Assembly: GCA_964471165.1 (NCBI GenBank)
Contig: CAYYEX010000004.1
Location: 22,378 to 86,377, forward strand
Source: an uncultured Candidatus Saccharibacteria bacterium
Lineage (GTDB): Bacteria; Patescibacteriota; Minisyncoccia; Phycocordibacterales; UBA2100
Direction: 5' to 3'
DNA: 64,000 bases
Shown here piece by piece: positions 39,933-60,720 of this stretch. Position numbers and translations under genes: made by a program. The notes under the pieces were generated by a model. The model was not told the origin of the DNA. It saw nothing but the letters and a program-made list of their open reading frames with translations, and ran no database searches. Position 1 is the first letter of the stretch, and every line of letters begins with the position of its first letter.

Positions 39933-40104
39933 AATATCTATTGTTTGTTTTGCAAAAAAATTGACCCGCATAGCGAGCCGTGCCTTCGAGGATTCGAAGA
40001 TAAGTTCGCCAGTGGTCCCCGACCGGTATGCCGGAGGGACTTGGGTTGAGGCAGTATACGGAACTATGAGAAATATGCAAATCCGGCCTTAGTTGGGCGG
40101 TAGC

Positions 40105-40563: not shown

Positions 40564-41434
40564 ACTGACCCGCTGGCTGGTACCACGTCGGAATTACGTT
40601 CACGCTCTTTGTTTCAGTGATTGTGCTTGGAGTGCCTCCGACAAGTGCGCGACAGAAGAGGGTGTAATCGGTTCGGCTTGTAATTGGGCTGGTGGTCATT
40701 CCAGTAGCACCTGAACCGAGCATGTTCCACTCCCCAGTAATACTCCCGGCTGCTCCGTCGCCGTTGGAACCGCGAACGGTGCAATCGCGTACATTTGATA
40801 CGTTCCAGAACACATAAGTCACGTCGCCCGCGCGAACGATTCCCGGCTGCACCTGCAAATGTCCGGATGCGTTGAATCCTCTTGTAGTCGCGAATCCTAT
40901 GAAATGCGGATTACCGTCAGGTGGAACGCATGTGTTACCCACTTTTGTGTATCCAGTAGGACAAGCCGGACAATTACCCGTAGTTGGATTTGGGGTAGAA
41001 CCATCCCAACACGAGTTCGGGGCATATGTTCCAGTGTATGAACCAGTGCCCGGGGTGTATGAGCCGGTGCCTGTCGGATACGAGCCGGTGCCCGGAGTGT
41101 ATGAGCCGGTGCCCGGAGTGTATGAGCCGGTGGTTGGGTCGTATGAACCCGTGGTTGGGTCGTATGAACCCGTGGTTGGGTCGTATGAACCGGTAACAGG
41201 AACGTATGAACCGGTAACAGGAACGTATGAAGCAGTGACTGTGCCGCCAGAGGCGGGAACCATTTGAAGTCCCGACGGGCTTTCGTCGGAAAACTGTGTT
41301 TCGACCGACAGCTCAACAGTGCGAGCAGACGAGTAGTTGAATAAGAGATATGCTGCGGCAAAAATCGCAAAGGCACTCACAATAAATCGACTATAGTCGC
41401 TGATGCGTAACGACTTCTTCGCATGTCGGGACAT
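40553..41434 (-). CDS. membrane-anchored protein with tandem heptapeptide (TGSYxP-type) repeats and a Cys-containing C-terminal domain
   Basis: TGSYVPV x2, TGSYDPT x3, TGSYTPG x3 and further variants; N-terminal TM anchor. Confidence 0.55.
   Translation of the reverse strand: MSRHAKKSLRISDYSRFIVSAFAIFAAAYLLFNYSSARTVELSVETQFSDESPSGLQMVPASGGTVTASYVPVTGSYVPVTGSYDPTTGSYDPTTGSYDPTTGSYTPGTGSYTPGTGSYPTGTGSYTPGTGSYTGTYAPNSCWDGSTPNPTTGNCPACPTGYTKVGNTCVPPDGNPHFIGFATTRGFNASGHLQVQPGIVRAGDVTYVFWNVSNVRDCTVRGSNGDGAAGSITGEWNMLGSGATGMTTSPITSRTDYTLFCRALVGGTPSTITETKSVNVIPTWYQPAGQFGN
41029..41240. repeat. About ten 21-bp tandem repeats encoding the heptapeptide array
   Basis: Directly visible: ccggtgcccggagtgtatgag x2, cccgtggttgggtcgtatgaa x3, ccggtaacaggaacgtatgaa x2 and further units. 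Confidence 0.8.
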
Positions 41435-41495: not shown

Positions 41496-42740
41496 TTACG
41501 ATTCCCCCTCTAGACAAAGCGAGCGATATTGTTCGGGAATCAACGCGCAACGCTCAGAGCGCGATTGACCCCTCGGGATATACCTCGATATGCTTACCGC
41601 AAGATCATGGAAACAGAAATCTTGAGATTTTGAGTCGCGTAAGAGCGAACAGAAACGTGCAGAAACGGAAGGTTCGGCATCACCCCCCCAGAAAAATGTA
41701 GATAGTGCATACGATTTGCATACAAGCGCGTCCGCTTCGTCACTCGCGTGGTTGCAAAGATTTTCCACTGCACGAAGCTGCTCATCTGTATACAATCCCT
41801 CGTCGAGCTTTCTTACATCATGGCCACCGACATTGTGTGGAAAGTCCTTTCCGAAGGCACCAGCGCACGCGCTTCGGTTTGCGCCGTGTGGCAAGAGTGC
41901 ACAAACAGCCATCCCCCGACTCAACTGTGTGTCGGTGAATGTTTGCATATTCGCACCAGCATATTCCATAAAGTGCGGACTCATGTATACGTAGCAGCTC
42001 GCTTTTGCGCTTTCAGGAATGAGTGCAGTGTCGCAAGGGGCAAGAGGGTTTTTAGGGTCAAAGTATTTTCTATTGGCTTTCACCCACAGCTCGACATCGT
42101 GCCCTCCGCCGCCGACAAGCTCCATCACTGCCCCACCAATACACTCCTTCGACTGAACGAAATCGTACTCCTTGGTACCGGTTTTTTCGCAGAATGCGAC
42201 GGTTTGCGGGAAACTGAAACCATAGTATGCGAAAACCCCATGACCGAGTCCGTGGTAACACATTGAATACGCACTGCCTCCACCGGGCGCAGAATGACAC
42301 GCATCGTCTATGAGTTTGCGCACACTATCCCCGTCGCCCAGTTCTTGCATCGTCTCTATTACAATCGAATGCGAACATCCATTGCGAAATTCCTGTGTAC
42401 ACACAGACATACCCTCGATTCCCTGTTGCGCATAGAGCTCGTGTCCGATTGCATGCGCAATGAGATGAATGTCGGTATCCAGTGGCAATATCGCTTCTCG
42501 CAGTACCGCAAAAGAATATTCGGCACCTTTTACTTGTGCAAGTTCACCAAATCGTTTTGAAAGTTCATTAAGCGACGGCGTGCCACTTCCAATTGTTGCG
42601 ACCTCAGGATAGTTGGCTACCGTGCTCACCTTTGACTCCCGCACCATTACGAGTCCTGCACACACCGTGAGCACAGCAAGTGCTGCAAGAAGTTTTTTTG
42701 TTGAAATGCCCGACACCATCGAAATAAGTATAGCCGACAC
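41496..42740 (-). CDS. Cys/His-rich secreted protein, paralog family member 1 of 3
   Basis: Signal anchor. Shares ordered motifs with 53186..54412 and 62558..63622: H.IGH ... C....C..GC.H(S/G)(I/V) ... C(Y/V)HG(L/V)GH ... C..G.(F/V)ME. Confidence 0.55.
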   Translation of the reverse strand: MSAILISMVSGISTKKLLAALAVLTVCAGLVMVRESKVSTVANYPEVATIGSGTPSLNELSKRFGELAQVKGAEYSFAVLREAILPLDTDIHLIAHAIGHELYAQQGIEGMSVCTQEFRNGCSHSIVIETMQELGDGDSVRKLIDDACHSAPGGGSAYSMCYHGLGHGVFAYYGFSFPQTVAFCEKTGTKEYDFVQSKECIGGAVMELVGGGGHDVELWVKANRKYFDPKNPLAPCDTALIPESAKASCYVYMSPHFMEYAGANMQTFTDTQLSRGMAVCALLPHGANRSACAGAFGKDFPHNVGGHDVRKLDEGLYTDEQLRAVENLCNHASDEADALVCKSYALSTFFWGGDAEPSVSARFCSLLRDSKSQDFCFHDLAVSISRYIPRGQSRSERCALIPEQYRSLCLEGES

Positions 42741-45821: not shown

Positions 45822-47333
45822 ATGGTACGTGTGGATACGGGCAAAAACAACGGCCCCGAGCGCGTGACCCTGTGTGATATTATCGCGAACATGATAATAG
45901 ACGGTGAGCTGCTCTCGGATTCCGCCAGAAAGACCATGTCCCCGGGAGAATCCGCAGTGAGCGCCTTCATTTCATTCATTGAGAGAAGGCTAAACGTCAC
46001 GGTCGTACGCGAGCTGCGCAAATACACTTGGGGAAATCCGCGTCTAGCCTCGGCAGCCGAACTCGCAGTTCTTTTGCAAGATAGACACATCGCACAGTCA
46101 TTTCAAAGAATGTCCCAGCGCGCAGATGAACCACGCCTTCTGCGCTGGAATGCGGTAGGCTTTGGAGAGTCGGAACATCGTTCAGGCGGGGCTTCATTTT
46201 CCATCGAAGAGAACGCACTCTATGCATGCGTTGCAGAGTCTCTCGAACGGTATCTCTGGTCGGAGAAGTCCGATTATTTCCGAAAGCCGATGCACGGAAC
46301 CGAGCGTGAGGTGGGTTCACGCACCCCTATCATTCCAGTCGCACGATTCGCAGGATTTTCCTGCGAACAACGTGCACAAAACCCGAAACTCTTTATCTCA
46401 CCAGAGACATCTTTCCTGTGGATTGAGGCGGTCTCGGTTATAACCGGACAGAATGTCCACGTGCCAGCCCAAGTAGTCAGCGGCTACAACGATGCGCAGC
46501 GCACAGGTGTGCCTGCCGAGCCGAGCATCCGACCGCGGATAACAACAGGCCTCGCCACTTGGCGAGATGTTTTGGGAGCACGTCTGCGCGGTGCGCTCGA
46601 GGTGATTGAGCGCGACGCATACATGATTATGTGGCTCAATCAGCTCGTACTTCCGCGCATCAATCTCAAAGATATCTCGGCGAGAAATGCGGAAGTACTT
46701 CGCCAAATACAAAGTTGTGAACGCTATGGATTACGTGTTCATGCGATTCGTATGATTACCGACGCCCCCACATATGCAATATGTGTTGTTGTCGAAGATA
46801 CATATACTTCTTCGCCAAAATATTCGGTGGGTCTGAAAACTGGGCACTCAATCGCCGATGCTATTCTCGGGGCATTGTCCGAGGCACTTCGCGCACGTTG
46901 GAGCACTCGCCACAAAGTAGAACAAGGAACCTTGTGGGATGAAGCGCGCCCCGTTTCCGAAATTGGCCACACGGAGCGACTCGTGTTCTGGGCAGATGCC
47001 GGGCGTTCCCACAAACTTGATTTTTTGATTGCTGGACAAGAGACACGTTTTACTCCTGAGGAGTGGGAGTCTGACAGCGACGCGACTCATCTGAAACGCC
47101 TTGTCTCGTGGTGTAAAAAGACGGGCTACGAAATGATTTCTGTGGGACTCGACACTCCCAGCAACAATCCGCTGCCATGGCACGTGGAAATGACCATCAT
47201 TCCCGAATTACAGCCCATGTATTTGCACGAATCGAAACATGTTCTCGGAGGAACTCGAATCTCGACTATCCCGAGTATGTTCGGATACCCCGCGCGAGCT
47301 CCTTACCTCGATACCCCGCATCCATTCGCCTAA
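45822..47333 (+). CDS. YcaO-domain protein (azoline-forming cyclodehydratase family)
   Basis: SFSIEENALYACVAESLERY and ALEVIERDAYMIMWLNQ match the YcaO ATP-binding signatures (S...E..ERY, E.IERD). ATG at 45822. Confidence 0.7.
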   Translation: MVRVDTGKNNGPERVTLCDIIANMIIDGELLSDSARKTMSPGESAVSAFISFIERRLNVTVVRELRKYTWGNPRLASAAELAVLLQDRHIAQSFQRMSQRADEPRLLRWNAVGFGESEHRSGGASFSIEENALYACVAESLERYLWSEKSDYFRKPMHGTEREVGSRTPIIPVARFAGFSCEQRAQNPKLFISPETSFLWIEAVSVITGQNVHVPAQVVSGYNDAQRTGVPAEPSIRPRITTGLATWRDVLGARLRGALEVIERDAYMIMWLNQLVLPRINLKDISARNAEVLRQIQSCERYGLRVHAIRMITDAPTYAICVVVEDTYTSSPKYSVGLKTGHSIADAILGALSEALRARWSTRHKVEQGTLWDEARPVSEIGHTERLVFWADAGRSHKLDFLIAGQETRFTPEEWESDSDATHLKRLVSWCKKTGYEMISVGLDTPSNNPLPWHVEMTIIPELQPMYLHESKHVLGGTRISTIPSMFGYPARAPYLDTPHPFA

Positions 47334-47337
47334 ACAT

Positions 47338-48066
47338 ATGACTCGCTTCATTTCTCATCTTCACTCTGACTTGCGTCACGCACGCACCACGCGGCGAGGT
47401 GCTACAAAGGCTGCGTCAGAGGTGCCGCTTGGACTTCATAAAAAGTATCCGCGCATGAAGCGCATACCGCTGCCAGATGTGACACTTCCTGACGCAACAA
47501 TCACTGAGGTCCTCCGTACTCGTCGTTGCGCCGAGTACGGTGAAATTGCGTTCGATATTACATTCAAAGATTATGCCGCACTCTTCAGCATGACGCTCAA
47601 GCAGCATGAAAATACAAACCACCGTCCCTACCCTTCCGGAGGTGGACTCTATCCCATTGAGACATATCTGCTGACTCCTGTATTTGATAGCCAACCGGGT
47701 GGCGTATTCCACTACAATCCAAGCGAACACGCACTTGAATACCTGTGGCCACTAAAGGACAGTGCCGGTTTTAGGAAGCTTTTGCCTCGTGCAGAACCTC
47801 TTGAATTCAGCGCGCTGCTCGTTTTCACTTCGGTCTGGGACCGCTCCTCTGCCAAGTACGGCGATTATACTTATCCGTTCGGACTTCTCGAGGCCGGGCA
47901 CATGTCGCAAAATATTTTGCTCGCAGCCACAGCGCTCGGAATCGCAGCTCGGCCAATGGCCGGCTTCAACGATGGGGCGCTCATCGATAATCTAGATGTC
48001 GACCCCGACTACGAACAGCCTATTCATACCGTTACCCTATCGAAAACGCGCGAAAAACGCTCGTAA
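47338..48066 (+). CDS. SagB-type dehydrogenase (nitroreductase superfamily; azoline oxidase-like)
   Basis: RPYPSGGGLYPIETYL is the TIGR03605 hallmark (R.YPSAG..YP.E.Y). The ATG lies 4 nt after the YcaO stop. Confidence 0.65.
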   Translation: MTRFISHLHSDLRHARTTRRGATKAASEVPLGLHKKYPRMKRIPLPDVTLPDATITEVLRTRRCAEYGEIAFDITFKDYAALFSMTLKQHENTNHRPYPSGGGLYPIETYLLTPVFDSQPGGVFHYNPSEHALEYLWPLKDSAGFRKLLPRAEPLEFSALLVFTSVWDRSSAKYGDYTYPFGLLEAGHMSQNILLAATALGIAARPMAGFNDGALIDNLDVDPDYEQPIHTVTLSKTREKRS

Positions 48067-48101: not shown

Positions 48102-49490
48102 ATGCCGCTACTTTCGAAGAACTTTCCTCACCTCTCTCGTATCGTCTTCGAGATGCGTCGCGTCTATCGAAAACTGTTTTCCGTCCAGGAGATTGAGTCC
48201 TCTTCACAGCTCCAATGGATGCTCGGAGCATCACTCCTCTACCTATTTTTCACTTTCAACAACTGGGCGGGCAACACAAGTGTAACGGTCGAGGCGGCAC
48301 AACAGGGGCGAGCCGTCTGTTGGCCGTATTTTCAACATTGTTCGGATTACTTCTTCCTTCACATGTTGCCGTACGGGTATTCGCAGACAATTTTTTACAT
48401 GGTGCTCTACGGCGTGATGATGCTCATCGTCTGGGCCATGTGGCGACAGAAATGGACCACTGCACATGCACTGTACGCACTTTTGATTCTATGGGAGATG
48501 GCGGTCGTGTACGTCTTTTCTTTTCAGTCGGCAGCACCATACCACTACTATCACATCATTCTCGGATTGATGTTGATATTCGCGTCACACAAAGAGTTTT
48601 TCCTGAAACTTTCGTTCGTGCTAATGTACTTCCTTTCCGCCACAACGAAGATTGATTCCACTTGGATACTCGGTTCGTACTTTACGTCGCTCGAAAATGG
48701 ACTGCCGATTTTTCCCGGATGGTCTACACCGCTGCTTACCAACGCGGTGATGTTTATGCAGATGATAGGTAGCTGGTTTTTGATTTCAAAACGGGCTGCG
48801 CTGCGTCATATCGCGTTCGTGTACTTCATGTTCTTCCACTTCTATTCAGGTGTATTTGTGTTGTATGAATATCCAACGGTAACACTCCCGACCCTCGCAG
48901 TACTTTTTGGCCCCATGTATCGCTATACGCCGATTCCCTTTGGGAGAAAAACAATTGTCGGCTGGGTAATACTCGTGATTGTGTGTGCCGTGCAAGCATT
49001 GGGATTCATAGCACCCGGAGACAGACGCATTACGATGGAGGGAAACAAGTTCGGCATGTTTATGTTTGAGGCAAATCATCAGTGCGCCGTAACGATAACA
49101 AGCTACACGGACACAAAAGTTTCTTCATCGACTCCTGGATTTGCACCGGACGGTTGTTCGGGGCAATACTGCCACACGCGATCAACTTCAAAACGAACAG
49201 CTGGGATTCTCGCTCGAACTGATGTCTACGAAAGTGGCAGCTCATGGAACCGCTGCTATCCGTATATCTGGTGGTCGAAACTTCATCTACAGTGTGGGCT
49301 GCGCCCCGGTCTCACGCGCGTCGCATTGCGCATCGACCACTCAATCAACGGCGGCCCCTTCTACAGAATTGTCGATGAGCCCGACGTATGCTCCCTTTCG
49401 TATCTCCCATTCGGACCAAATTCTTGGATTAAAAGTCCACCAGAAGCCCCCGCGATAGGCTTACCGGTACGCAATGCGTATCACTACTAA
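48102..49490 (+). CDS. polytopic integral membrane protein (8 or more TM); possibly HTTM/VKGC-like, a family often seen next to RiPP clusters
   Basis: The N-terminal 300 aa are very hydrophobic and W/F/Y-rich; the C-terminal ~150 aa are soluble and Cys-containing. I cannot verify the HTTM assignment by eye. Confidence 0.5.
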   Translation: MPLLSKNFPHLSRIVFEMRRVYRKLFSVQEIESSSQLQWMLGASLLYLFFTFNNWAGNTSVTVEAAQQGRAVCWPYFQHCSDYFFLHMLPYGYSQTIFYMVLYGVMMLIVWAMWRQKWTTAHALYALLILWEMAVVYVFSFQSAAPYHYYHIILGLMLIFASHKEFFLKLSFVLMYFLSATTKIDSTWILGSYFTSLENGLPIFPGWSTPLLTNAVMFMQMIGSWFLISKRAALRHIAFVYFMFFHFYSGVFVLYEYPTVTLPTLAVLFGPMYRYTPIPFGRKTIVGWVILVIVCAVQALGFIAPGDRRITMEGNKFGMFMFEANHQCAVTITSYTDTKVSSSTPGFAPDGCSGQYCHTRSTSKRTAGILARTDVYESGSSWNRCYPYIWWSKLHLQCGLRPGLTRVALRIDHSINGGPFYRIVDEPDVCSLSYLPFGPNSWIKSPPEAPAIGLPVRNAYHY

Positions 49491-49688: not shown

Positions 49689-51326
49689 ATGAGTGACCGC
49701 GCCCGACTGCGCGAGGCGATTGCAGGAGCGTTTAAGTACCGCGACCGGGATGGCGCAGTTATCATCGATCAATCGGGGTCCCAATCGAGGTGGATTGCTG
49801 ACTTCCGCTCGATTGTTCTTCGTTCAGAATGGCTCAACCTATATGCAAAACTTTTTTGGGAGACTTACGGAAATCGCTATCCATTTCAGGTTGCTGGTAT
49901 GGAAACCGTTGGTATCGCGCTCGTCGCAGCAATTGTGATGAAAGGGGCTGAGATTGGGAAACCGGTCAATGGTTTCTTTATCCGAAAGTCTCGAAAAAAA
50001 GATGGTCTCATGAGAGCTATCGAAGGAACCTTAACCAAGGAGCCCGTGATTCTTGTCGACGACCTCATCAACTCCGGAAACACATTCGACAAACAACTCT
50101 TACTGCTCGACGGAATGGGTTTGAGCGTGACTGATATCTTTGCAGCCCTCCGATTCCGCCCAACTGAAGCATATACATTCGCTCAAGAGCGCAACATCGC
50201 GGTCACGGCACTTTTTAGTCTCAAGGACTTCGGTCTGCCGCTACGACCTGTGAGTGAGCCCGTGGTTCCACATTCCTCATTTTCGAAACTGTGGCACTAT
50301 CAGGCACCACATCCGTCACTCCAAGTTGTTGCAGAAAAATCCGCTCCTACCCTTTTTGAGAATCTAGTCCTCTTTGGATGTGATGACGGTGTTCTTCGCG
50401 CACTTGATACTGAAAGTGGCACCCTCGTCTGGGAGTTTACAATCGGACGACATCGCGGTGGTAAAGGGATTCTTTCGAGTCCTGCCGTACACGATGATGT
50501 TGTCTACTTCGGTGGATACGATGGAAACGTTTATGCGCTTGATGCGCGTACAGGGAAGAAAAAATGGTCCTATGAAGAGGCAGATTGGGTGGGCTCGTCG
50601 CCGGCAATCGACATAGCACGAGGGCGCCTCTATATCGGTCTGGAATTTGGCCTCTTCGGGAAAAAGGGCGGTATCGTTGCACTCAAACTCGCAGACGGCA
50701 GCGAGATTTGGCGCGACACAACCGTCGCATTCACACACGGCTCCCCCCTCTACATTCCCGAAGAGGATATGGTGGTTATCGGTAGCAATGACCATATCGT
50801 GTACGCCTACGACGCTGGGAACGGTGCTCGTTTGTGGACATTTGCAACAGACGGAGACATCAAATCCAAACCCGCATACGACACAAAACGCCGCCATATC
50901 GTGGTGAACTCCATGGATGGTTCCTGCTATGTATTGAGAGCGCGCGATGGAGAACCGCTGTTTGCAAAAGAAGCCGAGTTTGGATTTTACTCATCTCCGC
51001 TCATACACGGTGACACTATATATTCAGCATCGCTCGACAAGACACTCTACGCGTTCAATGCAGAAACATATGCAGACGAGTGGGTGTTTGAAACGCAGGG
51101 TCGAATATTTTCCTCTCCTACTCTATTCGATGACTCACTGTGGGTGGGTTCAAATGATGGTCGGCTCTACGAGCTGAATCCGCAGACAGGTGCACTTAAA
51201 AACTTCTTTCAAGCAACTGAGCGGATTGTGAATGCGCCCGTGTATGAAGTCTCGTCACAACGCATTTTCGTGCCAACACAGGCAAACGAAATCTACTGCA
51301 TCAAAAAAGAGTTCGTTCAACATTAA
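49689..51326 (+). CDS. fusion protein: N-terminal type-I phosphoribosyltransferase (OPRT-like) domain plus a C-terminal PQQ-repeat beta-propeller
   Basis: PVILVDDLINSGNT (PRPP-binding loop) in the first 200 aa; then 6-8 repeats of the ..DG.(L/V)YALDA.TG...W.. type. Confidence 0.6.
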   Translation: MSDRARLREAIAGAFKYRDRDGAVIIDQSGSQSRWIADFRSIVLRSEWLNLYAKLFWETYGNRYPFQVAGMETVGIALVAAIVMKGAEIGKPVNGFFIRKSRKKDGLMRAIEGTLTKEPVILVDDLINSGNTFDKQLLLLDGMGLSVTDIFAALRFRPTEAYTFAQERNIAVTALFSLKDFGLPLRPVSEPVVPHSSFSKLWHYQAPHPSLQVVAEKSAPTLFENLVLFGCDDGVLRALDTESGTLVWEFTIGRHRGGKGILSSPAVHDDVVYFGGYDGNVYALDARTGKKKWSYEEADWVGSSPAIDIARGRLYIGLEFGLFGKKGGIVALKLADGSEIWRDTTVAFTHGSPLYIPEEDMVVIGSNDHIVYAYDAGNGARLWTFATDGDIKSKPAYDTKRRHIVVNSMDGSCYVLRARDGEPLFAKEAEFGFYSSPLIHGDTIYSASLDKTLYAFNAETYADEWVFETQGRIFSSPTLFDDSLWVGSNDGRLYELNPQTGALKNFFQATERIVNAPVYEVSSQRIFVPTQANEIYCIKKEFVQH

Positions 51327-51330
51327 GAAA

Positions 51331-51362
51331 ATCCGGATGACGTGGCCATCCGGACTTTTTCT
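51331..51362. terminator. bidirectional terminator hairpin (TCCGGATG-ACGTGGC-CATCCGGA flanked by AAAA/CTTTTTC)
   Basis: Lies between the convergent genes ending at 51326 (+) and 51391 (-). Confidence 0.5.
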
Positions 51363-51390: not shown

Positions 51391-51636
51391 TCAGCCGGCG
51401 CGACGCGGCTTGCCGCTCACCGGGGTTGCAGCGGGCTGCTTGTTCAGCTTCGCGTTCTCGCACGATGCGTTGGCGCGACTGGGCGAGAGGCGCGGATTCT
51501 TGTTCATCTTGCACTGCGAGCACTGCATCATCGGCATCTTCGCGCACTGCGCGAAGGCGACGGTGGGCGCGCCGATTGATGACGCTGCGTAGACAACTGC
51601 TCCAGCGAGCAGGCCGAGGAACGATTTTCTCATAGT
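51391..51636 (-). CDS. small secreted Cys-containing peptide (81 aa precursor, about 50 aa mature)
   Basis: GGGAGGA 8 nt upstream of the ATG at 51636. Signal peptide MRKSFLGLLAGAVVYAASSIGAPTVAFA, then QCAKMPMMQCSQCKMNKNPRLSPSRANASCENAK... The track start at 51750 is an extension. Confidence 0.45.
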   Translation of the reverse strand, partial: TMRKSFLGLLAGAVVYAASSIGAPTVAFAQCAKMPMMQCSQCKMNKNPRLSPSRANASCENAKLNKQPAATPVSGKPRRAG

Positions 51637-52557: not shown

Positions 52558-53198
52558 CAGATCGTTGGGAGTTCGACGAGTCAGTTGCGAAACGCTTCGA
52601 CGAAGAGGCCCGCAAGCACATCCCTCATTACGAGGAAGTCATCCAAGCGTCGCTCTCGATTGCACTCGATGTTTTTCCAGACAAAAAGGCACGGGTACTC
52701 GATGTCGGTTCCGCTCTCGGGCACACACTCGAAGTATTTCGGGCGGCGGGATTTGAAGATGTGCATGGCGTCGATAACTCAGCGGCGATGCTCGCTCACT
52801 CGCGAGTCCGCGATAACCTGATACTTTCTGACTCGTTTCCAAGCGATGCCGGGATGTTCGATGTTGTAACTGCAAACTGGACACTCCACTTTATTCGTGA
52901 CGCATCCCTGCGCGCACTCTACATCCACGACATTTCTAAAAGTTTATCCGCGGAAGGTGTGTTCATACTGACCGACAAGATGGAAGCAACGCAAGACGAA
53001 TACGATGGCTATCACAACTTCAAACGCACGATGGGTCTCTCTGATACTGAGATTAATGAAAAGGCTCGTGCTCTTGAGGGAGTGCTGATTCCCTTCCCGG
53101 TGCAATGGTACGAAGAGATTCTCAGTCAGACAGGTTTCCGGTCAGTTGAAGTAATCGATTCGCAATGGTGTTTCAATACCTTCGTATGTCGAAGATAA
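52545..53198 (+). CDS. CmoA-like methyltransferase-fold protein (carboxy-S-adenosyl-L-methionine synthase-like)
   Basis: WEFDESVAKRF / IPHY / DVGSALG / VDNSAAMLAHSR / VVTANWTLHF / HNFKRTMGLSDTEI / SQWCFNTFVC line up with CmoA WTFDERVAEVF / VPGY / DLGCSLG / IDNSPAMIERCR / VVLNFTLQF / HDFKRANGYSELEI / FQCFNFGSLVA. It overlaps the CmoB-like gene by 13 nt. Confidence 0.6.
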   Translation: MAGMTDRWEFDESVAKRFDEEARKHIPHYEEVIQASLSIALDVFPDKKARVLDVGSALGHTLEVFRAAGFEDVHGVDNSAAMLAHSRVRDNLILSDSFPSDAGMFDVVTANWTLHFIRDASLRALYIHDISKSLSAEGVFILTDKMEATQDEYDGYHNFKRTMGLSDTEINEKARALEGVLIPFPVQWYEEILSQTGFRSVEVIDSQWCFNTFVCRR

Positions 53199-54412
53199 AT
53201 ACACTGTTAGTCGCCGCAGGAATCATAGCCGTGTTTTCAGTATTTTTGGGATACATATTCACTCAAACCAATGTACGAGGAACGCAGAGTGTGGAACACG
53301 CTCTGGATTCTCTTTCCCCCTGCTTCACTGCGCGCAACCCCGAAGATAAAGCTGACCTTGCGTGTCTCGAGCGCGAAGTGAACGAACTCCTCTCCAAGTT
53401 CCCGACCCACGCTGTAATGAGCAAGATTAGTGCGAGCACATCTCCACTGGTGGTAGTGAGAAATTGTCATCTTATCGGGCACATGATTGGGCACAAAACA
53501 TTTCAGAGGACACCCTCGCTCGAGGATGCATACGAGCAGTGCACCGCGAGTTGCAAAAACTCGTGTGTTCACGGCGTCACAACCGAAGCAATATCTCAAG
53601 AATTGGGCGAGTCGTACGTGGCAGAGGATTTGTCACACGCTGACGGCGAGACCCTCGCAACGATTGGTAAACGGTACTGTGACCGACAAAAGGTGCTCTG
53701 TCACTCAGTGGGTCATCTATTACGCATTGCGCTCAAGTCGTATCAAGCCGCGCTTCCTATATGCGAACAGATGGGTACTAATAAAATCGATTGTTATAAG
53801 GGAGTATTCATGGAAGATGCGGCGTCTATCGAGCTCACAACGCGAGGACTGCCCGATCAAACAATTGCTCAAGAAAATTACGTGTCCCCATGCGCATCGG
53901 TACCAACGAAGTATGGACGGCAATGTTTCTGGTACCTCCATCTTTATCAGTCGAGCCTGTTCGAAAAGAACGGCATCTCCACAACGGCAGAACAATTGCG
54001 GATATTCCGCAATGCATGTGATTCTTTACCCGATCAACAGCGTGCATGGTGTTACTACGGCATGGGAGGAAATGCATACCGAGATCGTGACGAAGACGGA
54101 TCTCCTGTCGACATAGTGACATTTTGCGACCCGATTATTCGCTCAGTAGATAGGACACAGTGTACGGTGGGCATTGTGCGCTCGTATTTTACAACGGTCC
54201 TCCCGCGCCCTGACAGGGCACGGACATTTTGCGAGCAGCAGGCAAACGTTCAGTTGAAAAACACATGCTATGAGACAGTATTTACCCTCGAGAGTGAAAG
54301 TCTCGCAACGTCGTCGATAGAAGCTTTGTGTGGACCTGTTCCCTCGATAGCATGCACTGCCGCATTCAACACATACACACCCCCCCGCAACCCAATCGAG
54401 TCCGACGACTAA
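53186..54412 (+). CDS. Cys/His-rich secreted protein, paralog family member 2 of 3
   Basis: Signal anchor MSKINTLLVAAGIIAVFSVFLG; motifs as for 41496..42740. Confidence 0.55.
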   Translation: MSKINTLLVAAGIIAVFSVFLGYIFTQTNVRGTQSVEHALDSLSPCFTARNPEDKADLACLEREVNELLSKFPTHAVMSKISASTSPLVVVRNCHLIGHMIGHKTFQRTPSLEDAYEQCTASCKNSCVHGVTTEAISQELGESYVAEDLSHADGETLATIGKRYCDRQKVLCHSVGHLLRIALKSYQAALPICEQMGTNKIDCYKGVFMEDAASIELTTRGLPDQTIAQENYVSPCASVPTKYGRQCFWYLHLYQSSLFEKNGISTTAEQLRIFRNACDSLPDQQRAWCYYGMGGNAYRDRDEDGSPVDIVTFCDPIIRSVDRTQCTVGIVRSYFTTVLPRPDRARTFCEQQANVQLKNTCYETVFTLESESLATSSIEALCGPVPSIACTAAFNTYTPPRNPIESDD

Positions 54413-55521
54413 TGCATATGAATCGACTTATTTACTACAAATCCGGCGCTGTAACAACACCGGAGGCACGTCTTCTCCCCGGAATGGACCGTTTCGCATC
54501 GTTTTTTGAAATTACAAACGACACAGCAATGCCAGTCGATCGCACAGGAACCATACGTTTTCCCATTCGAACCCATTCTCTTTTTTCAATGCCGACACTG
54601 CGTCCCTATACAAAATCATATTCAGAAACATGTGACGAGCGGGCTGTCGAGATTCTCAAGCGCGCTACTGCATTGAATGTCGATGTGCGAGTAATGTGGT
54701 CTGGTGGAATTGATAGCACGGTTGCACTTGTCGCACTGCTTAAAAACGCAACAACCAAAGAGGAGCTGCAGCGCATCGTTGTATTACTCTCCGAGGAATC
54801 AATATCGGAAAATCCCCGCTTCTTTGAAGCACATATCCACGGAAAGATCCGGTACGACTCTGCAATCATGTTTCCATACCTTCTTGGCACGAAGCACATC
54901 CTTGTAAGCGGAACGCATAACGACCTGCTTTTTGGAAAAGATATTGTAGGATCGATCGTGAGTCGGTTCGGCATGTCGAAAGTTCTCAGTTTAATAGACC
55001 GAGATATTCTCCGTACTTTTTTAGCAGAAAAGACAGGTGCTGCCGATACTGCTGAATTTTATATTGAATTATTTGAAAAACTGCGCGCGATTGCTCCTCT
55101 GCCAATTGACTCAATCTACAATCTGTTCTGGTGGTTCGACTTCTGTACAAACTGGCAAAAAGTGTACACGTCAATTCTTCCGTTCACTGCAGAGCGAAAC
55201 ATACCACTTATTACGAGTGAATATGTGGATACGTACTACATGCCTTTTTTCAATACGGAAGATTTTCAACTGTGGAGCATGAACAATCTTGATAAACGAA
55301 TAAAGGACACGTGGGAGTCCCATAAGTGGCCGGCAAAAGACATGATTTACGATTTCACAAAAGACGCTGAGTATCGTGACACAAAGATAAAACGAAGTTC
55401 ACTCTACTTCCTCATCGTGCAACAAAAGTCTGTGAACTTTATTGATGAGTCGTTTCGATTTTTTGACGAAGCGACCAGTACCGATTACTACGACCCAAAG
55501 AACGATTTCAGAGACGAGTAA
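54412..55521 (+). CDS. PP-loop (SGGxDS) ATP-pyrophosphatase superfamily protein, paralog 1 of 3 (asparagine-synthetase-C-domain-like / adenine nucleotide alpha hydrolase)
   Basis: VRVMWSGGIDSTVALVALL at about residue 115. The start overlaps the previous stop (TAATG). C-terminal block FNTEDFQLWSMNN...KWPAKD..Y.FT.D..YR..K.KR.SL is conserved in all three copies. Confidence 0.6.
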   Translation: MHMNRLIYYKSGAVTTPEARLLPGMDRFASFFEITNDTAMPVDRTGTIRFPIRTHSLFSMPTLRPYTKSYSETCDERAVEILKRATALNVDVRVMWSGGIDSTVALVALLKNATTKEELQRIVVLLSEESISENPRFFEAHIHGKIRYDSAIMFPYLLGTKHILVSGTHNDLLFGKDIVGSIVSRFGMSKVLSLIDRDILRTFLAEKTGAADTAEFYIELFEKLRAIAPLPIDSIYNLFWWFDFCTNWQKVYTSILPFTAERNIPLITSEYVDTYYMPFFNTEDFQLWSMNNLDKRIKDTWESHKWPAKDMIYDFTKDAEYRDTKIKRSSLYFLIVQQKSVNFIDESFRFFDEATSTDYYDPKNDFRDE

Positions 55522-55559: not shown

Positions 55560-56234
55560 ATGGACACGTGGTATGCATTGCTCGATATCGGAACAAAAGC
55601 GGTGCTGACGATAAGCCAACGACAAAGCGCCATGGTTTTTTTACGCGAGTGCACCATTGATACAGCACTTTCAAATGGCGTTAACACACCCCGGTATACT
55701 CACTCGTGGATACACAAGGAGCCTTTTTTTCTTGCTCGGTTGCGCCCGGAATTCTATCCTGAATGGACATGGGATGTACAATCGCGTTCATTCCGTAAAA
55801 CACTCCCTGAGCTGGTAACCCCCGCTCTGAGGGCGCGCTCCCGCCTTGCCACGGTAAAGGTCCGCACAATATCTCAGATGATGTCACAAGTCTCCATGAC
55901 GCGTCAGCATTTCCAATCCGGTGTTGATTTCCAAGAGACTGTCTATTTAACGAAGAAAGCCCAGGCCCAGCAATTCGTGCAAAATGGTTACGACGAATCC
56001 GATATTTTGAACATTCCCTACGTGCTTCAGTATGCCGACTTAAAAGGTCTTTCACTTCGTCAGGCAGCGGAGGATATACTTTTTCGTGCAAAACTCGACG
56101 ACGAACTACTTGCGCGTACCGAACTTCTGCGCCTAACGTATTTCGAAAAGGTGAAACAGGCAACAAACCCCGACGATCTGCCAAGAATACTGAGTGCTTT
56201 CCATACCGCAGCATTCAGATCGAGACCTGTATGA
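55560..56234 (+). CDS. conserved ~225-aa partner protein (paralog 1 of 2) preceding a PP-loop gene
   Basis: Aligns with 60721..61440 (e.g. YLTKKAQAQQF...IPYVLQYADL...AAEDILFRAKL...TELLRLTYFEKVKQ...DDLPRILSAFH.AAF). No known motif. Confidence 0.45.
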   Translation: MDTWYALLDIGTKAVLTISQRQSAMVFLRECTIDTALSNGVNTPRYTHSWIHKEPFFLARLRPEFYPEWTWDVQSRSFRKTLPELVTPALRARSRLATVKVRTISQMMSQVSMTRQHFQSGVDFQETVYLTKKAQAQQFVQNGYDESDILNIPYVLQYADLKGLSLRQAAEDILFRAKLDDELLARTELLRLTYFEKVKQATNPDDLPRILSAFHTAAFRSRPV

Positions 56235-57325
56235 AAAACCTCTTGCTAGCTCACGCGAGAACCGTCGTCTCCCCCGCAAACCAACACGTACCCGGGATAA
56301 AGACTCTCACTGCTTTTTTCGATATCTACCGTACGGGTGTAATCCCGATTGATCGGACAAACACATTTCGCACCCCCGTGCGCAGCACAATGCTTTTCCC
56401 TATGCCCACGTTTCGCATTCACAAAGGTACCTACGAAGATGCCTGCAATGCGCGAGCAACGGAAATCATTCAGCGAGCAGAGACGTTGGATTGTCCAATA
56501 TTTTCGTTCTGGTCGGGTGGAATCGATAGTACGTGCGTACTTGTCTCCCTCTTAAAGAACTCTACACAGCAACAGCGAGAACGCATCACTGTACTCATGT
56601 CAGAGGACTCAATTGCGGAAAACCCGAACTTTTATGCCGAGCATATTCACGGCAAAGTGCGGCATGACTCGGCGGGAATGTTTCCATACATGCTCGGGAG
56701 CGAGCGAATCTTTGTGAACGGTGAACACAATGACCAGTTGTTCGGTTCCGACATTGTCGCCGCCTTCATAAATCGATTCGGTGCCGCCATCATTCACCAG
56801 CCCTTCGCGCGAGACACAATACTCACGTTCTTCACTGAACGCACGAAAGACGTAGCAATGGCGGTCTTTTATCTTGAGCTGTTTGAGCGACTCAAGGCGG
56901 TAGCACCCGTACCAATTGAAACGAACTATGATTTCTTTTGGTGGATTAATTTCGCGACAAAGTGGCAGAGTGTGTACATGCGTACCCTTACATACACGGC
57001 ACCACGCAACCTGCACCTCATCAATAAAACGTATCTTGATAAATATTACGCACCATTCTTTAACACCGAGGAGTTTCAACTCTGGAGCATGAATAACCCG
57101 GACAAGAAAATTAAAGACACATGGAAAACATACAAGTGGGCTGCGAAGGAATTAATCTATGAATACACAAAGGATGCTGAGTATCGTGATAACAAAATAA
57201 AACGCGGCTCCCTCGTGATGCTCACAGACCAGCAAAAACCCTCCCCGTTCATCACCGACACGTTTCAGTTCCCCCAAACCCTTGCACCCGAAGAATATTG
57301 CGACCCGGAGAACGATTTTGTGTAA
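56231..57325 (+). CDS. PP-loop (SGGxDS) ATP-pyrophosphatase superfamily protein, paralog 2 of 3
   Basis: IFSFWSGGIDSTCVLVSLL; ATGA overlap with the partner gene. Confidence 0.6.
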   Translation: MKNLLLAHARTVVSPANQHVPGIKTLTAFFDIYRTGVIPIDRTNTFRTPVRSTMLFPMPTFRIHKGTYEDACNARATEIIQRAETLDCPIFSFWSGGIDSTCVLVSLLKNSTQQQRERITVLMSEDSIAENPNFYAEHIHGKVRHDSAGMFPYMLGSERIFVNGEHNDQLFGSDIVAAFINRFGAAIIHQPFARDTILTFFTERTKDVAMAVFYLELFERLKAVAPVPIETNYDFFWWINFATKWQSVYMRTLTYTAPRNLHLINKTYLDKYYAPFFNTEEFQLWSMNNPDKKIKDTWKTYKWAAKELIYEYTKDAEYRDNKIKRGSLVMLTDQQKPSPFITDTFQFPQTLAPEEYCDPENDFV

Positions 57326-57388: not shown

Positions 57389-57970
57389 TCAGTGCTCGTG
57401 CTTGTGGCCGTGATGGTGCCCATGCCCGTGGTCGTGACTGTGGTCGCTCGGATGCTTCATCCTGTCCGGCGCGTTCACGTCCTTGTGCGGATGCCCGAAA
57501 GCGATGATGACCAGCGGTTCCCGCGCGGTTTCCGGCGGACCGGTCACCGCATGCGGGTGTTCACCCGGGATGAACATGGTGTCACCTGGCCCGACAACCC
57601 GGTCCTCCCCGCTGATGTGGACAGACCCGACACCCGAGAGAAACAGCAAGACATGGTCGCCGACATGCTCGTGGAGCGCAAAGGCGCTCCCCGGCTGCAT
57701 CTCGATGCAATCCACACCGATGTCGGTTCCATCAACCTTCATGCCGACCGCGCCCATGCGTCCGCGAATGCCCTTGAGCGGCTTGCCGTCCGAATCATAC
57801 ATCTCGGACAAGTCGCCCTTCAATACATTTCGCAGATGCTGACCGTCAATCCACTTGCGTGCTGCTGCACGCATTGCCGCAACTTGAACCGATTCCACCG
57901 GCACCTCCATTGATTCGAAACCCAATCCGGTTTCCGTGCGCAGTATGCACAATATGACCTCATATTTCAA
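57389..57970 (-). CDS. cupin-domain protein with a His-rich C-terminal tail (HDHGHGHHHGHKHEH)
   Basis: Cupin motifs G(X)5HxH...(E)...G...P.G..H (HEHVGDHVLLFLSG...MFIPGEHPHAV); the His tail suggests metal binding. Start uncertain. Confidence 0.55.
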   Translation of the reverse strand: MKYEVILCILRTETGLGFESMEVPVESVQVAAMRAAARKWIDGQHLRNVLKGDLSEMYDSDGKPLKGIRGRMGAVGMKVDGTDIGVDCIEMQPGSAFALHEHVGDHVLLFLSGVGSVHISGEDRVVGPGDTMFIPGEHPHAVTGPPETAREPLVIIAFGHPHKDVNAPDRMKHPSDHSHDHGHGHHHGHKHEH

Positions 57971-57991
57971 TGAAAACAGTTCACGGGTAAT

Positions 57992-59275
57992 CTATCCACG
58001 AGCAGATGTTTCGTCGCTCATATCCAAAACAATTTTTGACTTTCCCCGAGGGGTTTTGGGCAAATCATCGACCGTCTCTACCGAAACTCTTACTGTGGGC
58101 CCAACGAGCTCCTGAATATTCAAAAGAATTTTTGAGCGTGCACCCTCCCCAAACGCGACACCCGGAATCAGGAGGACGGCGACTTCCTCTTCGGATTTTT
58201 TCACAACAAGATATCGCATAATCGCATTCATGAATGTCTCGAGCGCAGCGTCGAACTCCAGATGATTGATGCGTCGATTCTGGAATGTGAGGAACGCAGC
58301 ATAGCGACCCTCGAGCCACACACGCGGAGATTCCCTACCGCAAGAACATCTCGAGTGCGTCATCGTGCCGTGATCTCCCGTGTCATACCTGATGAACGGC
58401 ATCCCCGTGTTATAGAGGTCGGTGACAACGATTCGTCCATCGGTACCGTCGGGCACCGGCAGACCCGACTCGTCTACAATCTCCACAAACAGCGACTCAC
58501 AACTGGTATGCAATCCGTCATGTTTTTCGCATTCCATGCCGACAACCGCAAACTCCTCCATTCCGTAGCGGTTGTAAACTTCGCACCCGAGGACCGATTC
58601 GATATAACGACGTAACGCCGGCGTCATCTGTTCGCCGCCCGATATCACATAGCGCACCTGGAACGGGATATGCTTCTGTTCCACCAGCTGAGCCATCGAG
58701 TGAAGTATGGATGCGAAGGATTCAATAATGTCGGGTCGAAATGCAATGACACGATTGAGAACGTTCTCGGGTTCGAGCAAATAATCCGTGATTGTTACGA
58801 ACAACCGGTTTTTGCGCGGCTTCGCTTTTGTGAATATGCGAGCGATACGCGGCCAGGTGGGCATCTTCCAGGGATTTTCCCAATAGAACATTCTGTACAC
58901 GACCGAGTCTACATAAATATTTTTCTTGAAATGAGCGCGCGTCAGCATGGTGAGCGGCTCTCCACTCGTGCCCGACGTGGTCGCCCATCGTCCCACAAGC
59001 ATTGCGCTGTTATCCGTGTATTCGTCAGCGGGACGACCGAGAAACATCTTCTTGGAAACAATCGGGAGATTGTTCATGTCTGCAAATGACCGAATGTCCG
59101 GAGCAGAATCCCCTGGCTTACCATATAATTCGCCGTACATCGGAACATTTTTTGCCGCATGCGCAACGATTGTGCGCAATCGCCGAAGCTGCCACGCCTC
59201 GATAGCGACGCGCCCGCGCATGTGGAGCGTGTGGAATAGAACAAAATCGATACGATTTTTAAATTTCTTCCACAT
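57992..59275 (-). CDS. phenylacetate-CoA ligase-like (PaaK / coenzyme F390 synthetase family) adenylate-forming enzyme, paralog 1
   Basis: WATTSGTSGEPL (P-loop/A3)...VISGGEQMTP...YNRYGMEEF...IRYDTGDHG...PRGKSKIV. Started at the ATG at 59275 to avoid overlap with the paralog. Confidence 0.65.
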   Translation of the reverse strand: MWKKFKNRIDFVLFHTLHMRGRVAIEAWQLRRLRTIVAHAAKNVPMYGELYGKPGDSAPDIRSFADMNNLPIVSKKMFLGRPADEYTDNSAMLVGRWATTSGTSGEPLTMLTRAHFKKNIYVDSVVYRMFYWENPWKMPTWPRIARIFTKAKPRKNRLFVTITDYLLEPENVLNRVIAFRPDIIESFASILHSMAQLVEQKHIPFQVRYVISGGEQMTPALRRYIESVLGCEVYNRYGMEEFAVVGMECEKHDGLHTSCESLFVEIVDESGLPVPDGTDGRIVVTDLYNTGMPFIRYDTGDHGTMTHSRCSCGRESPRVWLEGRYAAFLTFQNRRINHLEFDAALETFMNAIMRYLVVKKSEEEVAVLLIPGVAFGEGARSKILLNIQELVGPTVRVSVETVDDLPKTPRGKSKIVLDMSDETSARG

Positions 59276-60638
59276 GTTTCGTGCTGGATTGTTTATACCC
59301 CACAAAATACAATGCTTTACCGCTCTTCGACGCCGGAATTTCTTCAACTATTTCCCACGTAATCACTGCCGCAGGGTGCAAAAGACGAATGAGCCGCAAT
59401 TCTAGGTCTTTTTTATCTCGTTCAAATCTTTCCCCAGCCATGACTCGTACAGAAAACGTGTATTGTTCCTGTTGAACAATCTGAAATTGCTTGACGCTCT
59501 CAGAATGCCAGTCGAATACCGACGCGAAGTCGAGCAGCGAAACAGTCCGCCCATCATCAAAATGAATAAATTCGATTTCGCGACCCGTCACCTGAATTGT
59601 GCGGAGTGTTCTACCGCATGCACACGGCTCATCGGATATCTTGCCCTTATCTCCATTGCGATAGCGAATCATAGGCATGATACGGCTATCGAAGACGGTC
59701 GCTACAACAAATCCTTCGGTACCAAATGGCGCAGGGTTTCCCTGCTCGTCCACAATTTCAACATACGCCCATTCCTCATTGAGATGCATAGCGCGCTCTT
59801 CACATTCGAAGCCAAGCCACCCGAGTTCGCGTGTCGCATACGTGGTGAAAAACTTTGTGTGTAAATCTTGTTCAATTGTCTTGCGCTCTGAAGAGCGAAT
59901 ACTCTCACCCGTGGCGATAATTGCACGGATTGGCAACAGCACGTTCGATTCGCGGGCACGTCGAGCCAGTTCAATACATGCCGATGGAAATCCGTAGAAT
60001 ACAACCTCTGATTTGAGTGACTTCACAAACTCCACAAGCGCCGGAAGTCGGAACTTCACGGTGTTGTAGTTCTTCATGAAAAAAAGATGCTGGTTATGAG
60101 TCAAAAAACCGAGCTTCTCACGTGCGCGAAGCGCAATCACGGGTGGGCGGGTGCCCCCTGCTGCAGTTGCCACCATACGTTCACATACTGCAAACGAACG
60201 TAATTCCCATGCACGATCGACATAGAAATCAAACGGGCGACCCGTTGAGCCTGATGTGTGGTCGGAGAAACCAGAGTGGAGCAAATCTGGGTCGGTCCAG
60301 TACGATATATTATCTTTTGGAAAGTTGCGTTTGGATGTAATCGGCATATTGACAAAGTTGCCCTCCAAGACGTGGTCAGGGTCGATATTGTTTTGGGCAT
60401 AGATATCGCGCCACAAAGCGACACGCTTTGCATATCGCATGAGATCGATGATGCGCTCACGCGTGTACGAGTCGAGCGTCTCACGCGACCAGTACTGGCT
60501 CACGAGAAGCGCACGTGTATCTGCCCACAGAGGGATACGGAGTGTCACCTTCCAATTAAGAGGTCCTCTTGTCCAGAGTAAATCGCTCCTCCACCCTCGC
60601 TTTAAAAGAGTATTCATAGCGAAACGCCCAGCTTTCAT
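59259..60638 (-). CDS. phenylacetate-CoA ligase-like adenylate-forming enzyme, paralog 2
   Basis: HTSGSTGRPF...IATGESI...YATRELGWLGFECE...IRYRNGDKG...SKSGKALY. Start taken at the ATG at 60638 (alternative 60617). Confidence 0.65.
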   Translation of the reverse strand: MKAGRFAMNTLLKRGWRSDLLWTRGPLNWKVTLRIPLWADTRALLVSQYWSRETLDSYTRERIIDLMRYAKRVALWRDIYAQNNIDPDHVLEGNFVNMPITSKRNFPKDNISYWTDPDLLHSGFSDHTSGSTGRPFDFYVDRAWELRSFAVCERMVATAAGGTRPPVIALRAREKLGFLTHNQHLFFMKNYNTVKFRLPALVEFVKSLKSEVVFYGFPSACIELARRARESNVLLPIRAIIATGESIRSSERKTIEQDLHTKFFTTYATRELGWLGFECEERAMHLNEEWAYVEIVDEQGNPAPFGTEGFVVATVFDSRIMPMIRYRNGDKGKISDEPCACGRTLRTIQVTGREIEFIHFDDGRTVSLLDFASVFDWHSESVKQFQIVQQEQYTFSVRVMAGERFERDKKDLELRLIRLLHPAAVITWEIVEEIPASKSGKALYFVGYKQSSTKHVEEI

Positions 60639-60720
60639 GGCATGGAGTATAGCAAAAGGCGCCCTGTTTTGAGACACATATCTTCCCGCAAAAAAACCTT
60701 GTGATATCGTTAGTCTGCAT

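Follow-up and report, generated by a model that had tools for sequence, protein, structure and literature searches.

A phosphoribosyltransferase-propeller fusion protein in an azole-peptide-type gene cluster of Patescibacteria

What does a protein that begins like an orotate phosphoribosyltransferase (OPRT) and ends as a pyrroloquinoline quinone (PQQ)-repeat beta-propeller do beside the genes of an azole-peptide synthetase? The question is raised by one gene in a 64,000-nucleotide stretch of contig CAYYEX010000004.1 (assembly GCA_964471165.1), filed under an uncultured Candidatus Saccharibacteria bacterium and here called the window. An earlier note on this DNA had pointed out the joining of the two domains, for which it knew no named family, and had suggested a function shared with the neighbouring YcaO and SagB genes. 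Indeed, no dedicated Pfam or NCBIfam model matched the phosphoribosyltransferase (PRT)-propeller fusion and no literature on it was found, and homologues are annotated at source solely as "PQQ-binding-like beta-propeller repeat protein" or "BamB/orotate phosphoribosyltransferase". We regard the fusion as the hallmark of an azole-peptide system variant that is widespread among Patescibacteria and has not been described. We propose, at somewhat less than an even chance, that it serves as a cytoplasmic maturation factor with two domains in a Patescibacteria-specific ribosomal-peptide system, in which the propeller would dock the peptide and the PRT domain would use phosphoribosyl pyrophosphate (PRPP).

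Domain architecture and the PRPP site

The fusion gene (Table 1) is a single open reading frame (ORF) that starts with ATG and runs through 545 codons without internal stops, and the reverse strand across it is riddled with stops. Independent assemblies (at least two contigs, of ENA and Logan origin) encode the identical protein, and its length is covered to 88-100%, with 50-65% identity, by more than 120 homologues. Because these homologues share the full-length architecture, a frameshift or merging of genes, which the earlier note had considered as a way in which the ORF might fall apart into two genes, is excluded. The full-length AlphaFold2 model, which the note had called for, is a confident two-domain model (predicted local distance difference test, pLDDT, 87.8; predicted template modelling score, pTM, 0.81). 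Together with the continuous frame, the independent contigs and the homologues it makes an artefact of merging, frameshift or sequencing error next to impossible. The PRT domain itself opens the protein, and neither a signal peptide nor a lipobox was seen on inspection of the sequence, so the protein is predicted to be cytoplasmic.

The N-terminal domain has the type-I PRT fold with an OPRT-like hood, as seen in Foldseek and profile comparisons. The NCBIfam model TIGR00336 (pyrE) matched residues 28-181 (1.8e-14; 53.9 bits against a curated cutoff of 106.8), and phmmer against the PDB found the OPRT of Mycobacterium tuberculosis (5hkf, 2.8e-9, residues 22-183). With a profile of 17 N-domain sequences the top ten PDB matches were all OPRTs, 2wns being the first (1.3e-11), and PurR (1o57) was among the weak matches (1e-3). 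Modelled alone with AlphaFold2 the domain reached a pLDDT of 87.8, and the first 38 Foldseek matches of this model in the PDB were OPRTs, the best one again from M. tuberculosis (5hki; template modelling score, TM, 0.86; root-mean-square deviation 2.5 Å). The domain stops near residue 185 and is thus shorter than the approximately 220 amino acids (aa) originally allotted to it. Of the Pfam families proposed for checking, PF13360 and PF01011 matched the protein, whereas PF00156 did not reach E<0.01.

The fusion shares with OPRTs, such as PyrE, the short actinobacterial enzymes (5hkf, 5hki) and the OPRT domain of human UMPS (2wns), the fold, the PRPP loop with its Asp-Asp pair, the flexible loop R99-K100-x-x-K103 and an Arg equivalent to R156. 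However, its PRT domain is only about 20% identical to them and scores under the family cutoff. The fusion family has its own invariant residues W35, D38, R40, Q67, E72 and N128 (the last of these in place of the Thr of OPRTs), the equivalents of K26 and K73 are missing, and the acidic E72 lies in the pyrophosphate loop. We therefore do not regard the protein as a PyrE orthologue. Also, in contrast to OPRTs, the fusion carries a propeller and is encoded in a putative peptide-maturation operon rather than a pyrimidine operon.

Site conservation was followed in 84 copies of the fusion from one-genome-per-species loci, with identities down to 39%. An hhalign comparison with E. coli PyrE brought R99, K100, K103, D124, D125 and G130 into register, with Asn replacing T128. 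The PRPP loop is the one recognised in the earlier note, and the PRPP-binding residues, the lack of which would have spoken against its assignment, are aligned with PyrE and conserved: D124 is kept in 81 of the 84 copies and D125, N128 and G130 in 80 each. In the catalytic loop R99 is kept in 81 copies, K100 in 80, R102 in 83 and K103 in 75; this segment has low pLDDT in the full-length model, as expected of a mobile loop. E112 is present in all copies, and among the residues peculiar to the fusion family W35 is found in 79, D38 in 80, Q67 in 81 and E72 in 80. As for K26, T128 and R156, which we take to be the orotate-contacting residues of E. coli PyrE, the Arg (R157 in the fusion) is kept in 77 copies, Thr is changed to Asn in 80 and the K26 position is variable.

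The primary copies (n=80) retain the PRPP loop, the ribose-binding Asp pair and the RK-x-RK loop motifs, and the second paralogs alone have lost them. All four copies with a decayed site are such second paralogs; three share their locus with an intact copy, and the fourth comes from a locus (L042) where the primary copy is cut by the contig end. An enzyme accompanied by a pseudo-enzyme paralog would be expected to look like this, and the confinement of decay to second paralogs argues that the PRPP site is functional rather than merely structural. Judged from these sequences, the N-terminal domain is an OPRT-like PRT with a probably functional PRPP site. OPRTs are dimers, and the decayed paralogs may be pseudo-enzyme partners of the intact fusion. 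Both domains are under about equal constraint, mean pairwise identity being 44% for the PRT domain and 47% for the propeller.

The C-terminal part is a propeller, as had been noted, and has eight blades. Residues approximately 224-539 matched PF13570 (9.6e-54), PF13360 (9.9e-38) and PF01011 (8.4e-17), and Foldseek aligned the propeller with the eight-bladed Cake8 (TM 0.94) and with BamB structures (TM 0.73-0.84, around 0.8). The eight-bladed PQQ-repeat fold is common to BamB and PQQ-like propellers (PF13360, PF13570), and in AfsK kinases and ACSF4/AASDH an enzyme domain likewise precedes a PQQ-like propeller. In contrast to BamB, however, the fusion is predicted to be cytoplasmic, has no lipoprotein signal and belongs to a monoderm lineage; the BamB model TIGR03300 gave 131.2 bits against a cutoff of 285.2, and an identity as BamB was rejected. 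A PQQ-dependent dehydrogenase was rejected as well (TIGR03075, 75 bits against 480), and there is no sign of PQQ binding.

Table 1. Positions of the fusion, its predicted sites, the surrounding cluster and selected relatives. Coordinates without a locus handle are those of the window; L and P numbers are our handles for related loci and proteins.
Feature	Position	Strand	Basis or remark
PRT-propeller fusion gene, 545 aa	49689..51326	+	ORF, homologue alignments
OPRT-like type-I PRT domain, aa 1-185	49689..50243	+	TIGR00336, PDB OPRT matches, Foldseek
Flexible catalytic-loop equivalent FIRKSRKKDGL, aa 97-107	49977..50009	+	R99, K100, R102, K103 near-invariant
Predicted PRPP-binding loop VILVDDLINSGNT, aa 120-132	50046..50084	+	D124, D125 conserved; N128 in place of OPRT Thr
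Eight-bladed PQQ/BamB-like beta-propeller, aa 198-540	50280..51308	+	PF13570, PF13360, Foldseek
Terminator-like hairpin, bidirectional, stem up to 14 bp then T-run	51328..51358	.	begins 6 nt past fusion stop
Single-helix membrane protein, 67 aa	49493..49696	+	accompanies 462-aa gene in 13 loci
Polytopic membrane protein, 462 aa, between SagB and fusion	48102..49490	+	adjoins fusion in 25 related loci
SagB-type FMN dehydrogenase, 242 aa as called (ORF opens 47239)	47338..48066	+	TIGR03605, 100.6 bits vs cutoff 78.4
YcaO cyclodehydratase, 503 aa, YcaO domain only, C-terminus ...PHPFA	45822..47333	+	PF02624, TIGR03604
Candidate precursor peptide, 75 aa	45558..45785	-	divergent from YcaO; conserved ORF family
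Membrane-anchored helical protein, 388 aa	44379..45545	-	directly downstream of precursor
Two membrane-anchored tetratricopeptide repeat (TPR) proteins, 269 and 268 aa	42754..44366	-	TPR genes near fusion in 52-57 of ~83 loci
Decayed-site second paralogs of fusion	L080 2346-3998, L059 5479-7392, L029 14766-16412, L042 7986-9791		PRPP and catalytic residues lost
Cluster between rpsJ and rplC	L003 3116-19094; also L009, L046, L072, L049, L066, L064, L068, L079, L027		
PRT-propeller + Asp/Asn beta-hydroxylase	P0187, P0235, P0232		
PRT-propeller + HlyC-type acyltransferase	P0210, P0234		
PRT-propeller + Stf0 sulfotransferase	P0203		
PRT-propeller + formyltransferase	P0126		

The operon, its candidate precursor peptide and the third domains

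Three marks of an azole-peptide cluster, YcaO, an adjacent SagB and an adjacent candidate precursor with a Cys/Ser/Thr-rich core, are found among the genes near the fusion. The YcaO protein matched PF02624 with 2.3e-37 (129.5 bits against a cutoff of 25.7) and TIGR03604 with 9.3e-53 (179.5 bits, under the cutoff of 219). The consensus of the cluster YcaO family ends in PHPF, and its profile matches the YcaO domain alone of MusD, TruD and LynD. With Pfam and NCBIfam models no E1-like, Ocin-ThiF-like or RiPP (ribosomally synthesized and post-translationally modified peptide) recognition element (RRE) partner was detected in the cluster proteins, a short RRE in the first approximately 100 residues of YcaO being possible. 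The fusion gene and the 67-aa gene before it share 8 nucleotides (nt), the start codon of the one overlapping the stop of the other, and the fusion is the last cistron of the YcaO operon, since a terminator-like hairpin directly follows it. The polytopic membrane protein of the operon has a Cys-rich C-terminal part; a 17-sequence alignment of it gave nothing meaningful against the PDB and Pfam (one member matched Wzz with E 0.67), and an HTTM-like identity is unsupported by these searches.

The neighbourhood was compared in 83 related loci with flanks of up to 10 kb, using our own crude ORF calling. By tblastn of the window proteins, YcaO and SagB were each matched in 56 of the 83 loci, the TPR proteins in 55-57, the 388-aa protein in 30 and the 462-aa protein in 25; all-against-all clustering raised the 388-aa protein to 49 of 82 loci. 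Where both flanks reached 6 kb or more (39 loci), YcaO was found in 28, SagB in 29, TPR genes in 30 and the 388-aa gene in 28. Of the 71 loci with sufficient flank, 29 have YcaO and SagB immediately upstream of the fusion in the same orientation, and stop and start codons often overlap. The median distance from SagB to the fusion is 41 bp, and in relatives of approximately 55% identity the fusion comes straight after SagB with a 2-nt gap or a 4-nt overlap. These counts support the functional link to YcaO and SagB suggested in the earlier note. Also, the order and strand of YcaO and SagB vary among the loci (upstream, downstream or inverted), and the association is thus more than frozen synteny. 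Genes of the pyrimidine pathway were found neither among the annotated neighbours (the window and the flanks of up to 10 kb) nor among the recurrent neighbour families.

The two other partners put forward in the earlier note, a small secreted peptide (51391-51633, -) and a CmoAB-like gene pair, both lie beyond the terminator hairpin and dropped out of the picture: the peptide had no homologue in the 83 loci, and the CmoB-like and CmoA-like genes were found in 0 and 2 of them, respectively. More generally, none of the small ORFs downstream of the fusion had a tblastn match in these loci. The gene of the secreted peptide, which has 80 aa and contains Cys, converges on the fusion and shares the bidirectional hairpin with it; two assemblies have a public gene call at this place, but on different strands.

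In many relatives the whole cluster is located between rpsJ (S10) and rplC (L3), where it splits the S10 ribosomal operon. In the window, rplC is at 39315-39971 (-) and the minus-strand genes lead from the precursor straight into it; rpsJ lies outside the window, and the insertion is established in the relatives only. Such a location points to housekeeping or the cell surface rather than to an antibiotic, and may be a hint of a surface peptide that is produced constitutively and could have a part in attachment to the host.

The candidate precursor of the window, uncalled in the public gene calls for the contig, reads MDSSGRNSLLAKIRNAALIVGGMAIVLLGASRINSKGNPQSSATPLDGVAHADAPACAGDSTSAEACGCGDDGGC and consists of a basic N-terminus, a hydrophobic helix, a GVAHADAP box and the Cys/Gly/Ser/Asp-rich core ACAGDSTSAEACGCGDDGGC. 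Its family was found in 24 loci by BLAST, in 43 of 82 by a motif rule (a regular expression) and in approximately 53 of 82 by a hidden Markov model of the leader. The layout is common to the family: the basic N-terminus leads into a membrane-type hydrophobic helix, a spacer separates this from the A-[HYFQ]-A-[DE]-[AV]-P box, and the Gly/Ser/Cys/Asp-rich tail resembles the core of microcin B17 (McbA). The 388-aa gene is always 3' of the precursor and is duplicated with it where several precursors occur. Core composition correlates with the company of the precursor. With YcaO and SagB the cores have a median of 4 Cys, compared to 1 without them (Mann-Whitney p=0.005, n=43 vs 7), and Ser and Thr make up 23% as compared to 10%, whereas Asp and Glu account for 13% with and 29% without YcaO/SagB, all these values being uncorrected for phylogeny. 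In loci lacking YcaO (e.g., L072, L049 and L036) the cores are Cys-poor and very rich in Asp and Gly, and the fusion is still there. Thus, YcaO and SagB go with the azole-forming residues, and the fusion goes with the precursor family itself.

Classical azole-peptide synthetases depend on an E1-like or Ocin-ThiF-like partner whose RRE holds the leader. The cluster described here shares with the synthetases of thiazole/oxazole-modified microcins and linear azol(in)e-containing peptides (LAPs), such as McbBCD of microcin B17 and SagBCD of streptolysin, the YcaO with a Pro-rich C-terminus beside a SagB-type dehydrogenase and the neighbouring Gly/Ser/Cys-rich precursor. It differs from them in having the PRT-propeller protein in the slot of the missing E1-like or Ocin-ThiF-like partner, a leader with a membrane-type hydrophobic helix and an AHADAP box, and, in relatives, a location between rpsJ and rplC. 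In addition, the fusion also accompanies Cys-poor precursors where YcaO is absent.

Some longer, distant relatives of the fusion carry a third domain (Table 1) and keep the PRT signature, i.e., W-x-x-D-x-R, PFQ, E72, RK-x-RK, EG and VDD-x-x-N. Clusters of the candidate phyla radiation (CPR) also contain separate genes for an Asp hydroxylase and a sulfotransferase. As the third domains modify peptides or proteins, this pattern argues for a peptide or protein substrate, probably acidic, of the PRT-propeller unit. The unit may be analogous to the PqqD-like RREs, in function only, as a constant part joined to different tailoring enzymes. Its fold, in contrast, is entirely different from the winged helix-turn-helix, and an apparently catalytic pocket is retained. 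One of the members with a HlyC domain is encoded on a contig (L086) that looks diderm and non-CPR (YhdP, TldD/PmbA), so the PRT-propeller unit is not strictly confined to CPR. This gene adjoins two further Asp/Asn hydroxylase genes; YcaO is absent nearby, and no obvious precursor was seen among the small ORFs.

Proposed function and its alternatives

In the proposed system the precursor, with its hydrophobic leader, A-[HY]-A-D-A-P box and Gly/Asp/Ser/Cys-rich core, would act together with the membrane-anchored TPR and 388-aa partners. In most lineages the YcaO cyclodehydratase and SagB dehydrogenase would turn Cys, Ser and Thr into azoles. The eight-bladed propeller would dock the precursor, taking over the recognition role of the E1-like/RRE "C protein", and the OPRT-like domain would bind Mg-PRPP through the PRPP loop, the Asp pair and the RK-x-RK loop and then move 5-phosphoribose onto a nucleophile of the bound peptide. 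Phosphoribosyl transfer and substrate docking, both named as possible activities in the earlier note, would fit what was observed. That the fusion belongs to the peptide system is quite likely. Docking by the propeller, proposed because of the genomic context and the third-domain fusions, is for us evenly balanced between right and wrong. A PRPP-dependent transfer to the peptide is proposed because the catalytic site is conserved and is decayed in redundant paralogs, this being its one basis, and it is possible but doubtful. Further still, and somewhat unlikely, the fusion would found a family of peptide phosphoribosyltransferases adding 5-phosphoribose to a membrane-tethered acidic or azole-bearing peptide.

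Several points weigh against the proposal. Approximately one quarter of the full-flank loci have no YcaO or SagB within 10 kb, and partnering YcaO cannot therefore be the universal role of the fusion. The synteny and precursor statistics come from the crude ORF calling and are uncorrected for phylogeny, and part of the synteny is likely to be inherited gene order, given the location between rpsJ and rplC in many relatives. The invariant Glu72 is part of the loop with which other PRTs bind pyrophosphate and could weaken PRPP binding, and the strongly basic RKSRKR loop might serve for direct binding of the polyanionic core instead. Finally, we know of no PRPP-dependent peptide modification, and the acceptor is purely inferred.

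The basic loop leads to the first alternative, a non-catalytic scaffold in place of the E1-like C protein that would recruit the precursor and organise or activate YcaO, SagB and the other tailoring enzymes. The PRT pocket would then have taken on another task, binding the acidic Gly/Asp-rich core or a nucleotide, and would transfer nothing. Such a scaffold would fit the cluster in which neither a C protein nor an RRE was detected, the place of the fusion gene immediately after SagB with often overlapping stop and start codons, and the loop, which is more basic than its OPRT counterpart and would meet polyanionic cores. RRE domains are fused to many RiPP enzymes, and the varied tailoring enzymes joined to the PRT-propeller unit are reminiscent of this. 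However, classical scaffold C proteins have lost the nucleotide-site residues, whereas the motifs contacting ribose-5-phosphate and pyrophosphate are kept in the primary copies of the fusion and have decayed in the extra paralogs only; the fusion is also present where there is no YcaO nearby to organise. We consider a pure scaffold somewhat unlikely.

An enzyme acting on orotate or another free base in pyrimidine synthesis or salvage, with the propeller serving oligomerisation or regulation and with a neighbourhood that is incidental or metabolically coupled, is improbable, even though all the best sequence and fold matches are OPRTs, R157 (the equivalent of the orotate-binding R156) is kept in most copies and the main-chain-based hood segment can be aligned with the OPRT hood. 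The match to the pyrE model is half of its cutoff and PF00156 stays above E 0.01, Asn stands at T128, and the equivalents of K26 and K73 are gone. Pyrimidine genes are missing from the Pfam-annotated neighbours and the recurring neighbour families, the linkage to the precursor, YcaO and SagB outlasts rearrangements, the third domains are protein-modifying and not nucleotide enzymes, and the fusion is patchily spread. In addition, to our knowledge Paceibacterota generally lack de novo pyrimidine synthesis. PRT domains also serve as sensors in PurR and PyrR, and a regulator of this kind, sensing PRPP or nucleotides and gating peptide maturation or export by nucleotide status, would agree with PurR being among the weak profile matches. 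It is the least probable of these functional alternatives: the fusion has no DNA- or RNA-binding domain, its nearest relatives are enzymes and not regulators, and the near-invariant catalytic loop would not obviously be required for mere PRPP sensing.

If the PRT domain of the proposed maturation factor does act on the peptide, PRPP-dependent phosphoribosylation would join the chemistry of ribosomal peptides and an OPRT-fold enzyme would have a macromolecular acceptor; we know of no description of peptide phosphoribosylation as a post-translational modification or RiPP tailoring. If the fusion is a docking partner only, there would be azole-peptide synthetases without the canonical E1-like/RRE subunit, which bears on the rules of genome mining. 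A concrete gene set is defined: the precursor, the fusion, the TPR protein and the 388-aa protein, with or without YcaO and SagB. The set occurs widely in ultra-small, episymbiotic and for the most part uncultured bacteria, few of whose gene systems have assigned functions.

Distribution of the family and other genes of the window

The GTDB one-genome-per-species collection (185,579 species) was scanned with two peptide patterns, and 219 stretches with the fusion were confirmed, in a patchy distribution. As to the phyletic range, raised in the earlier note as a point to check, the fusion recurs widely, and all but one of the 80 retained loci whose record titles give a lineage are labelled Patescibacteria. 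The lineages named are Paceibacterota and Kaiser-, Nomura-, Morani-, Giovannoni-, Adler- and Doudnabacteria, and the "Saccharibacteria" labels stem from one third-party annotation (TPA) pipeline. On a 7-kb contig titled "Methanosarcinales archaeon" (L026, CAZIKW010000076.1) YcaO, SagB, the fusion and a precursor form a cluster typical of CPR; the contig label is probably a binning error. In a phmmer search of 1.84 billion cluster representatives with the N-domain alone, 354 clusters passed E<=1e-10 and 89 passed E<=1e-30. The majority are 530-580 aa long, which is the length of the fusion. A stand-alone PRT homologue (in the 190-240 aa range) sits on contigs of approximately 2 kb, where a split gene and a fragment are indistinguishable.

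The pairing of YcaO with a nitroreductase in CPR genomes has been reported as "LAP" clusters, 110 in 93 genomes, 51 being Parcubacteria (Sharrar et al., 2020, PMC7298704). The searched passages of that article do not mention a PRT-propeller fusion.

A defence system was considered as well and rejected, the PADLOC models giving no match to the fusion. Among five other proteins of the cluster or nearby, four had no PADLOC match and one TPR protein had a negligible one (PDC-M71B, 16.5 bits, E 6.5e-4).

Several other gene families are found in the window. On the minus strand, 40553-41434 encodes a membrane-anchored protein in which TGSY(x)P is repeated about eleven times, and 41496-42740 (-) and 53165-54412 (+) encode paralogous Cys-rich secreted or anchored proteins of approximately 415 aa, all three without a family assignment. 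Downstream of the fusion there are three paralogues of approximately 365-397 aa with an SGGIDST PP-loop motif of the ATP pyrophosphatase type (54328-55521, 56231-57325 and 61444-62556, all +). They have no Pfam match and recur in 12-14 related loci, and two of them are preceded by paralogous partners of approximately 225-240 aa (55560-56234 and 60721-61440, +). The stretch 57389-60758 (-) holds a cupin gene and two adenylating enzymes similar to CapK and phenylacetate-CoA ligase; such adenylating enzymes are located near the fusion in 14-16 related loci and may represent further tailoring or a separate pathway.

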